From the NCBI GenBank assembly GCA_039804105.1, contig JBDRZU010000002.1, positions 32,001-96,000 on the forward strand: a stretch of 64,000 nt of DNA, given 5' to 3'. The position numbers and the translations under genes were made by a program. Positions 24,861 through 32,246 of this stretch are shown piece by piece; the stretch's first letter is position 1; the number at the start of each line of letters is the position of its first letter. Under the pieces are notes generated by a model, which saw only the letters and a program-made list of their open reading frames with translations, had not been told where the DNA came from and did no database searches. This DNA comes from a candidate division WOR-3 bacterium (lineage in GTDB: Bacteria > Hydrothermota > 32-111).

Positions 24861-25890
24861 TTTCACTCCTTTCAAAAATACCCTTTAAATCTTCAACAAG
24901 ATTTTTAGAAGCAAGATATTTCGCGTTCATTATTCCACTTGCTACAGCTTTTGGATTGGATTTCCCATGACCGATCAATACGACTCCGTTTATACCAAGA
25001 AGCGGAGCTCCACCATATTCATCATAACTTGCTTTTTTCAAAAATTTTTTTATCGAAAAGTAAAAGAAAGGTAATCCTAAAAAACCTGGGGCTGAAAGTG
25101 TTAGTCCTAGAATAGCAACGGGTAATGGTTTCAGGGATGTTTTAAGGTTATCTTTAACCCAGTGTATCATACCTTCAGCGAATTTCAAAACTATATTACC
25201 TGTAAAACCATCAGTAACTATTACATCAACTTTATCAGTGAAAAAGTCACCACCCTCAATGTTTCCAAAAAAATTTATATTTTTATCTTTACTGATTAGT
25301 TCAAAAGCTTTCTGGTATATCACAGATCCTTTCGAATCCTCCTCTCCAATTGACAACAAACCCACAAGAGGTTTTTCAATTCCTCTCATAATCTTCATAT
25401 ACTCACTTCCAAGCAGAGCGAACTGATAAAGATTTTCTGGCTTTGGATCAGGGGTTGCCCCTAAATCAAGTATCAAAGGATGTTTTCCTATAGGAAAAGT
25501 GAAACCTAATGCTGGTCTTATCACCCCTTTTATCCTTCCGACCTTTGTTAACGAAAAAGCGAGTATGACTCCAGTGTTACCTGGGGAGAAGAACGCATCC
25601 GCCTTTTTTTCCTTTACAAGTTCAAGACCTTTTGCTATTGAAGAATTTTTTTTGTTCTCCAAAGCCCATGTTGGAGTATCATCCATCGAAACATCATTTT
25701 CCGACTCAACTATCTCATATTTTACAGAAAAATCTTTGTATTTCTCTTTCAAATATTTTTCAATGAGTTTTTTGTCCCCAACAAAAATGATCGTGTCATC
25801 ATCATTCAGTTTCTTTGATGCTATGTAAGCACCAGCCATGTTCACTTCAATTCCTACATCCCCTCCCATAGCATCAAGAACTATTTTCAC
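24847..25890 (-). CDS. plsX: Phosphate acyltransferase PlsX
   Basis: LDAMGGD, SPGNTG, RPAL, IGEEDSKG, VTDGFTGNIVLK, YGGAPLLG, HGKS. Confidence 0.96.
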   Translation of the reverse strand: MKIVLDAMGGDVGIEVNMAGAYIASKKLNDDDTIIFVGDKKLIEKYLKEKYKDFSVKYEIVESENDVSMDDTPTWALENKKNSSIAKGLELVKEKKADAFFSPGNTGVILAFSLTKVGRIKGVIRPALGFTFPIGKHPLILDLGATPDPKPENLYQFALLGSEYMKIMRGIEKPLVGLLSIGEEDSKGSVIYQKAFELISKDKNINFFGNIEGGDFFTDKVDVIVTDGFTGNIVLKFAEGMIHWVKDNLKTSLKPLPVAILGLTLSAPGFLGLPFFYFSIKKFLKKASYDEYGGAPLLGINGVVLIGHGKSNPKAVASGIMNAKYLASKNLVEDLKGIFERSESEEN

Positions 25891-26085: not shown

Positions 26086-26526
26086 CTAAATATTACATTT
26101 ACATTTTTCTTCGTTTAGATTCACTCCACATCTTGGACATATACCTTTACAATCTTCTTTGCAAAGGTTTTTTACTGGGAGTGATGTTACAACTATATCC
26201 TTGATATAATCGGTAATATCACAAAGGTAATCTGTAAATTTTATTATATCAAGTTCATCTCCGAGATAATCCTTCTTTAAAATAAAAAGAACCTCTTCAG
26301 AAAAATTTTTTTTAAATCTTTTAAGACATCTATCACAAATAAGTTCGAGTTGAAAGTCGATTTTCCCTTCAAACTCTATCTGGGTTTTATGGATATTGTT
26401 GACTTGGAATTCACCTTTTATGTAAAGATCATCATTAAAAAATTCATACTCTTCTTTTCTTATGACCCACTGGAAACTCTGATTTGATATACCAGCAGGT
26501 ATTGATGAGATATTGATATTTATCAT
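26086..26526 (-). CDS. yceD: DUF177/YceD family protein
   Basis: CDRCL and LCKEDCKGICPRCGVNLNEEKCKC motifs; conserved position before rpmF. Confidence 0.9.
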   Translation of the reverse strand: MININISSIPAGISNQSFQWVIRKEEYEFFNDDLYIKGEFQVNNIHKTQIEFEGKIDFQLELICDRCLKRFKKNFSEEVLFILKKDYLGDELDIIKFTDYLCDITDYIKDIVVTSLPVKNLCKEDCKGICPRCGVNLNEEKCKCNI

Positions 26527-26535
26527 AAGTTTTTT

Positions 26536-26563
26536 ATTATAACAAGAAAAGTTTAATTGTCAA
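26536..26563 (-). promoter_or_regulatory. Consensus sigma70 promoter (extended -10) of the yceD-rpmF-plsX-fab operon
   Basis: TTGACA (26563-26558), 16-nt spacer ending in TGT, TATAAT (26541-26536), 9 nt, ATG; no SD. Confidence 0.75.
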
Positions 26564-26601: not shown

Positions 26602-26634
26602 AAAAAAAACCCGGTTGGAAGCGAGGCCAACCGG
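26602..26634 (-). terminator. Intrinsic terminator of the candidate sRNA
   Basis: 8-bp GC-rich stem CCGGTTGG (26611-26618)/CCAACCGG (26627-26634) and an 8-nt A tract (26602-26609) that reads as U8 on the minus strand. Confidence 0.75.
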
Positions 26635-26662
26635 TTAGGGAGGGAATATGAGATTGGTATTT
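26602..26662 (-). ncRNA. Candidate small RNA (about 60 nt) with anti-SD/anti-AUG segment and intrinsic terminator
   Basis: Own promoter at 26669-26696; sequence ...AUACCAAUCUCAUAUUCCCUCCCUAACCGGUUGG-CCUCGCUU-CCAACCGG-G-U8; no ORF on this strand. Confidence 0.55.
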
Positions 26663-26668
26663 ACTGCA

Positions 26669-26696
26669 AATATAACCATTTTTTTGTTTTTGTCAA
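26669..26696 (-). promoter_or_regulatory. sigma70 promoter of the candidate sRNA
   Basis: TTGACA (26696-26691), 16 nt, TATATT (26674-26669). Confidence 0.6.
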
Positions 26697-26954
26697 GTGT
26701 TCACTTATAATTTTTTTTTAAAATTTGTTTAAATATCCTTAAAATCGTTACTTTTTTGTCAAAAAATCATAGTTTAATTTTTGATTTTTCTGTTGACAAT
26801 TTTAACAAACAATATAAGTTATAAAAATATATACATTTACATTTTTCCCACCTGAATTTTAATCTTTGAATCCATTCGATAAAGTTTCTTTATATATTTA
26901 AAGGTATATTTATTATTACGATCTATTCAATTTTATAAATTTAAAAAATTTCTA

Positions 26955-32046: not shown

Positions 32047-32053
32047 TTTATAT

Positions 32054-32226
32054 ATCCCTGCTTTACTTGTGATCGTATATTTTGCTGAACCAACACAATG
32101 AGTTAGGGAACCGGAAACGACACTATTAGCAAAATTCCTTTTTATGGAATTGTCGTGAAAGTGTCTTAAGGTACCCACCTTTTATTAAGGGCTCAGGCAA
32201 ATAATACACACGGTACAAGCGGGGAT
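32054..32226 (+). ncRNA. ssrS: 6S RNA
   Basis: About 173 nt between zapA and rny; ends pair (ATCCCTGCTT/AAGCGGGGAT); CTGAACC/GGGCTCAG and GGGAACC/GGTACCC stems flank a central bubble. Confidence 0.88.
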
Positions 32227-32246
32227 TTTTATTAAGGAGTTTAATT

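Follow-up and report, generated by a model that had tools for sequence, protein, structure and literature searches.

The genome under study (designated G000) contains, between the tRNA-Lys gene and the yceD-rpmF-plsX genes, a short GC-rich element in an otherwise AT-rich gap (55% versus 22% GC), which raises the question of whether this element is a gene in its own right and, if so, what its product does. The element lies within a 64,000-nt stretch of DNA (hereafter, the window), and all coordinates are window positions unless contig C1 is named. A sequence-only reading had called attention to the difference in GC content and had placed on the minus strand a promoter, an 8-bp stem, and a U8 tract (26696-26602), all of which were found again by sequence inspection (Table 1).

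Structure of the locus

The promoter, TTGACA-16-TATATT, agrees with the consensus at 11 of 12 positions. Its 16-nt spacer is the norm for G000 promoters: the genome contains 41 TTGACA-N16-TATAnT sites, versus 9 with a spacer of 17 nt, 4 with 15 nt, and 1 with 18 nt. This AT-rich region abounds in promoter-like sites (15, versus 8.3 expected), so the promoter by itself is weak proof of a gene. Past the TATATT hexamer, the minus strand reads AAAUACCAAUCUCAUAUUCCCUCCCUAA and continues into the stem, loop, and U8 tract, which together (26634-26602) form the sole terminator-like site between positions 25500 and 27500. The predicted 61-nt RNA folds into one hairpin (-14.1 kcal/mol, z-score of -3.05, with 1 of 200 shuffled sequences as good), and its C/U-rich 5' arm (nt 1 to 28) has a predicted probability of being unpaired of at least 0.91. 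The sequence-only reading had described the element as free of open reading frames, which is correct for the RNA strand but not for the opposite one, where a perfect ribosome site precedes an unconserved ORF of 20 codons. Full copies of the element occur once per genome; two matches in the related genome G005 lie at overlapping contig ends and probably represent a single locus.

Table 1. Features of the predicted RNA gene and its surroundings (window coordinates)
Feature	Position	Strand	Remarks
Second TTGACA	26757..26762	-	Conserved exactly in 11 of the 12 loci (TTTACA in the other); 66 nt ahead of the -35 box
-35 hexamer TTGACA	26691..26696	-	Unchanged in all 12 aligned loci
-10 hexamer TATATT	26669..26674	-	TATAnT in 12 of 12 loci; 91% pairwise identity
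Predicted 61-nt small RNA	26602..26662	-	5' end inferred from the -10 box, +/-1-2 nt
Unpaired arm ACCAAUCUCAUAUUCCCUCCCUAA	26635..26658	-	Identical in 12 of 12 loci except for one extra 3' A in 3
Anti-AUG CAU; anti-SD CCUCC	26650-26648; 26643-26639	-	Inside two tandem UCCC motifs of the arm
8-bp terminator hairpin with invariant loop CCUCGCUU	26611..26634	-	Stem CCGGUUGG/CCAACCGG
U8 tract of intrinsic terminator	26602..26609	-	At least 7 U in 12 of 12 loci
Antisense 20-codon ORF	26648..26710	+	Perfect ribosome site; by-product of the arm rather than a conserved gene

The second TTGACA hexamer, which is also present in the metagenomic copy L135, has no -10 box at normal spacing and is followed in most g1 and g5 loci by GATAyTTA (26730-26737, minus strand). 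It is possibly a regulatory site. The neighboring yceD gene has a perfect TTGACA-16-TATAAT promoter of its own (26526-26563, minus strand) that ends 9 nt before the ATG, so that yceD is probably leaderless, as it is in many relatives; genome-wide, 71 G000 genes look leaderless, versus 4 in a shifted control. Elsewhere in the window, a 6S RNA gene, found in 12 of the 13 family genomes, lies between a zapA-like gene and rny (32052-32229, plus strand). A 29- to 31-nt repeat has dozens of intergenic copies on G000:C1 and is also found in the related genome G011.

Conservation and distribution

A DNA search of 271 genomes of the phylum identified the element in G000 and in 11 of the 12 other members of its family, and returned four matches outside the family (E values of 0.004 to 0.008), all of them partial. 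Similarly, a covariance model (R1) searched against 150 phylum genomes scored 73 to 96 bits within the family and at most 30.2 bits outside it; none of the best 10 out-of-family matches proved on inspection to be the element, and several were reversed gene starts. No match to the element was found in G010 (93% complete, 330 contigs). The element accounted for 10 of the 57 matches in a scan of genome_contigs and for 5 of the 109 in a scan of metagenomes (L088, L095, L135, L149, and L156), the remaining metagenomic matches being devoid of the hairpin, and viral_contigs contained no exact match to a 23-mer of the element. The L135 copy (L135:960-1075) has the same core, but its -10 box and arm are separated by ~11 additional bases, and it is probably a 5'-extended variant.

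In the alignment of 12 loci, pairwise identity is 97% in the RNA core, as compared with 55% in the promoter spacer, 46% upstream, and 38% downstream. Between G000 and G005, the element is 94.8% identical over 58 nt, which places it with the best-matching tRNAs. Protein orthologues are 49% identical to those of G000 in G005 and 56% identical in G011. The 6S RNAs of G000 and G011 share 113 of 174 aligned bases, and stretches that presumably encode RNase P RNA and the TPP and cobalamin riboswitches are 77 to 82% identical. The RNA gene is thus conserved at the level of tRNA across genera whose proteins share just half of their residues. In the stem, 100% of the cells are paired, and 2 of the 8 pairs change on both sides, the covariation score being reached by 3 of 500 shuffles (6 distinct related rows). 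The element is preceded by tRNA-Lys and a cNMP-binding gene in 8 loci and by a gene for a large membrane protein in the other 4, and yceD lies downstream in just 3 of the 12; the element has been retained in at least three gene contexts. Such conservation places it far beyond chance. The sequence-only reading had made its proposal depend on conservation and had named covariation as a check, and both are seen, the arm and the hairpin being kept in 12 loci and two stem pairs being compensatory. Judged from these comparisons, the element is a real, strongly selected gene for a predicted small RNA, which belongs to a new family but is of a known functional kind.

Two other C-rich units were noticed on contig C1. 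One of them (G000:C1:749530-749600, minus strand; L383 and L300), in the 3' UTR of a gene for a 638-aa secreted protein, contains CUUCCUCAACCCCCUCCC directly before a hairpin and has the CUCA..CCCUCCC-hairpin arrangement in common with the 61-nt RNA. The exact 18-mer is found in 8 of the 13 family genomes, and 4 genomes of genus g40 contain it with at most one mismatch, which makes this element a candidate 3'-UTR-derived sRNA. The other unit (G000:C1:468460-468530, minus strand), with a terminator-like hairpin, is preceded by a presumed ECF sigma/anti-sigma-like gene pair and is unconserved (found in 2 of 13 genomes with one mismatch).

Complementarity to start signals and candidate targets

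The complement of the arm reads AGGGAGGG-AAU-AUG-AGA-UUG-GU, with GGAGG four bases before the AUG. This agrees with the earlier description of the arm as the complement of an idealised initiation region, and the register turned out to be the commonest SD-to-start spacing of the lineage. In G000, for which a crude caller gave 1622-1623 genes of at least 80 aa, GGAGG lies 4 nt from the start in 182 of the 303 GGAGG-led genes (the next class comprises 38) and in 111 of 184 genes when starts are chosen without SD scoring. The same unusually short spacing is the mode in G005 (103) and G011 (126). Of the 176 GGAGG-N4-ATG sites in G000, 158 are gene starts. Only 600 of 100000 shuffled arms were as start-like as the real one, and 2848 of 100000 shuffles that retained the C-rich block fell into the GGAGG-N4-AUG register. 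From -11 to +4, 13 of 15 positions of the arm complement carry the most frequent base of SD-led starts (the exceptions are -10 and -4), and the upstream half of the complement scores higher than 97.6% of real starts. The mean duplex energy with 600 of the 1623 start regions was -9.49, versus -8.19 +/- 0.56 and -7.89 +/- 0.58 for two sets of shuffled arms, in which 1 of 40 and 0 of 40 arms, respectively, matched the real one.

When GGAGG and ATG were kept constant, the remaining 16 nt of the arm gave no significant general complementarity (216 of 1000). A comparison of the arm with the 16S tail by energy was uninformative, because on non-SD genes, too, the longer arm comes out ahead (614 of 751). 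The likeness of the CUCAUA in the arm to the tRNA-Met anticodon loop extends one base past the start consensus and is not significant, and pairing of the arm with rRNA and 6S RNA revealed nothing outstanding.

The search for individual targets covered G000 and, with a crude gene caller, 1.24 of ~1.9 Mb of G005 and 1.36 of ~2.1 Mb of G011, from which 393 three-genome orthologue sets were assembled. No conserved target rose above the null in these sets, with 30 of 60 shuffled arms doing equally well by energy, and in-register stacking in the same sets was equaled by 920 of 1000 nulls. The genes that contain perfect sites for the 12-nt core differ from genus to genus, and in 3 of 13 genomes the only such site is the RNA gene itself. 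The sequence-only reading had pointed to serA, and its count of 15 matches in 19 positions at the serA start was reproduced. However, 6 of the 1622 called genes reach at least 15, the serA duplex ranks 61 of 1622 by energy, and the match falls to 13/19 and 12/19 in the orthologues (energies in the top 34% and 10%). Because of this modest energy rank and the falling match, serA was rejected as a target.

The best single candidate is a lead from sequence pairing, the gene for a PilT/PilU-family pilus ATPase at the head of a motility and chemotaxis gene run; the genes that follow it are presumably MglA-like, CheR, CheD, and CheB. The start of this PilT-family gene (TIGR01420) pairs with the arm at 17 of 20 positions, the top value among 1623 G000 genes, and the count is 16 to 17 in all 8 g1 and g5 genomes and 14 to 15 in all 4 others; no PilT-family copy was found in G009 with the query used. 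When this start was added by hand to the three-genome sets, it ranked first, with a sum of 48 (next, 43). The lead was matched by 318 of 1500 nulls by minimum, by 51 of 1500 by sum, and by 147 of 1000 in a pair scan, which, for a target chosen post hoc, corresponds to p of about 0.03-0.2. The duplex energies in g2-g4 (-10 to -12, top 22-42%) are unremarkable, and the Met-Glu-Leu coding supplies part of the match.

A second lead suggested by predicted pairing is a gene for a 72-aa Cys-rich protein (G000:C1:86339-86554, plus strand), which contains one of the two best non-self sites (17 bp, -27.2). It is patchy, with a clear orthologue in 6 of the 13 family genomes, and the sites in the four parsed orthologues are weaker (-23.1, -17.3, -15.3, and -17.1). 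The protein has no Pfam family, and its gene lies upstream of one for a Clp-like ATPase. Several of the strongest predicted arm sites of the genome are located in an accessory block next to a CRISPR array (G000:C1:1007000-1016300, minus strand), most of which was not found in the searched parts of G005 and G011. Any preference of arm sites for accessory genes was weak and depended on the threshold (p of 1.0, 1.0, 0.10, and 0.04).

Proposed function and alternative explanations

Taken together, the locus can be described as a conserved single-copy promoter-arm-terminator unit, and the predicted 61-nt RNA likely represses the translation of several mRNAs by pairing with them, a reading with a probability of roughly two-thirds. 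Transcription would start at ~26662 and depend on the primary sigma factor. The unpaired arm would then pair, without Hfq, across the SD, the spacer, and the start codon of several mRNAs, occluding the 30S subunit, with decay by RNase III or RNase Y perhaps following. Selectivity would come from the spacer and the first codons, as in the streptococcal csRNAs discussed below, and the start of the PilT/PilU-family ATPase gene is the best single candidate target. With several imperfect targets rather than one, the arm would be unable to drift. The RNase Y gene lies within the window, where an RNase III gene scores just under the cut-off. Hfq was not found in any of 13 genomes, nor were CsrA and ProQ in 5 genomes, all 5 of which encode KhpA/KhpB-type proteins scoring above the cut-off. 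An Hfq-independent, csRNA-like translation repressor is the most likely prediction from the sequence data, although the invariant loop and 5' arm represent more constraint than a short seed requires. A bolder form of this proposal, which is doubtful, is that the RNA imitates both the 16S anti-SD (CCUCC) and the initiator anticodon loop (CUCAUA) at the 4-nt spacing and acts as a global switch that would damp SD-led translation and spare leaderless mRNAs, such as that of yceD, the pilus retraction motor being the target that responds most sensitively.

The same complementarity could also reflect a brake of broad reach and low specificity on SD-led translation, with the RNA competing against the 16S tail and initiator tRNA for many mRNAs simultaneously and sparing leaderless ones. 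Such a brake would constitute a new level of control over translation, and it fits the modal bases at 13 of 15 start positions, the high score of the upstream half of the arm complement, the lack of a conserved target that stands out, and the duplexes of -12 kcal/mol or better formed with 329 of 800 SD-led starts versus 4 of 71 leaderless-like ones. It is nonetheless unlikely: the median SD-led duplex reaches just -11.5 kcal/mol, the invariant deviations at -4, +5, and +7 to +10 are not needed by a generic brake, the 16 noncore bases are not tuned to general pairing, and titration of hundreds of mRNAs would presumably require a very abundant short RNA. Quite unlikely, too, is that the RNA serves as a decoy or scaffold for a protein, such as a KH-domain protein, a ribosomal protein, or an initiation factor, its anti-start look being secondary. 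The tRNA-level invariance, which includes the terminator loop, the failure to find a significant conserved mRNA target, the KhpA/KhpB-type proteins in all 5 genomes, and the second conserved element with the same CCCUCCC beside a hairpin (the 3'-UTR 18-mer exact in 8 of the 13 family genomes) would all suit such a role, which, however, leaves the CCUCC and CAU in the 4-nt register of the lineage unexplained (~3% by chance) and finds no partner in CsrA or ProQ (absent from 5 of 5 genomes in the searches) or Hfq (13 of 13).

Pairing with another noncoding RNA, as a sponge or with rRNA, is highly improbable. An invariant partner would account for the invariance, and the arm has a 16S site at -20.6 kcal/mol, but many chance sites in the genome beat that value, and the intergenic stretches common to three genomes included no G-rich conserved noncoding partner on a plausible strand. 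Equally little probability attaches to a plus-strand product, in the form of a type I toxin-like hydrophobic peptide with the RNA as its antitoxin, or to a mere insulating terminator for the yceD-fab genes. The hydrophobic ORF with its perfect ribosome site and the position of the terminator, 39 nt before the yceD -35 box, can be cited for them. In relatives, however, the ORF varies from 8 to >60 codons and has only MRLV in common, a sequence dictated by the invariant arm, and the antisense peptide and the type I antitoxin were accordingly rejected. The downstream flank (38% identity) has no conserved plus-strand promoter, and the conserved promoter and U tract both point down the minus strand. 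As for insulation of the yceD-fab promoter, which the sequence-only reading had attributed to the terminator, it was rejected as the purpose of the element, since yceD is downstream in just 3 of 12 loci, and a terminator requires neither an invariant arm nor an invariant loop.

Relation to known systems

The sequence-only reading did not recognize the family of this RNA, and a comparison with Rfam 15 likewise gave no family at the gathering threshold, the best scores being 28.6 bits for LhrC (threshold of 110) and 24.1 bits for ncr982 (threshold of 50). By sequence homology, the predicted RNA is not a member of the csRNA, RsaE, LhrC, or ncr982 families, and none of the papers listed in literature searches described it, or any regulatory RNA for this uncultured lineage. 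The ncr982 RNA of Bacillus subtilis (RF02454) is also a short stand-alone RNA with a C/U-rich stretch directly before the terminator (PMC2965217), a likeness confined to composition and layout. Listerial LhrC (RF00616) similarly combines a CU-rich single strand before the terminator with a CU-rich terminator loop, but it exists in five copies, versus one here, and begins with a hairpin that the 61-nt RNA lacks (PMC4132741). The weak LhrC match partly relies on promoter DNA, and L047, L050, and L135 gave no LhrC match at E values up to 1.

The sequence-only reading named RsaE and RNAIII as analogues. The UCCC signature is indeed shared with RsaE, but the streptococcal csRNA class comes closest. 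In RsaE/RoxS and other UCCC-motif sRNAs of Staphylococcus and Bacillus, an unpaired UCCC pairs with the SD, and expression is independent of Hfq (PMC2790875), a protein not found here. The present RNA has two tandem, unpaired, and invariant UCCC motifs and differs from RsaE in having no 5' hairpin (nt 1-28 are unpaired) and an in-register anti-AUG. The 10 matches obtained from Rfam at E values up to 10 did not include RsaE.

The Cia-dependent csRNAs of Streptococcus have an unpaired anti-SD and anti-AUG, with CAU in 53 of 61 and the terminator hairpin alone in 16 (PMC3091779); they have strong promoters of their own and repress several mRNAs (PMC3091779, PMC4507080), and changes between the SD and AUG abolish their control of comC (PMC4507080). 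The 61-nt RNA resembles them in its own promoter, unpaired anti-SD and anti-AUG, and terminator hairpin as the sole hairpin. It differs in belonging to another phylum, in matching no csRNA family in Rfam at E values up to 10, in being a near-invariant single-copy RNA of 61 nt, as opposed to the variable sibling sets of 87-151 nt in S. pneumoniae, and in its 4-nt register. What is new here is the match of the arm register to the unusually short initiation spacing of the host lineage itself, the tRNA-level invariance, and the PilT lead. Reduced to an arm and a terminator, the predicted RNA is among the smallest possible designs, and its length of 61 nt means that it can be synthesized and tested without culture. 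The comparison points to convergent evolution, in a lineage with no detected Hfq, ProQ, or CsrA, of anti-initiation RNAs of the csRNA type.
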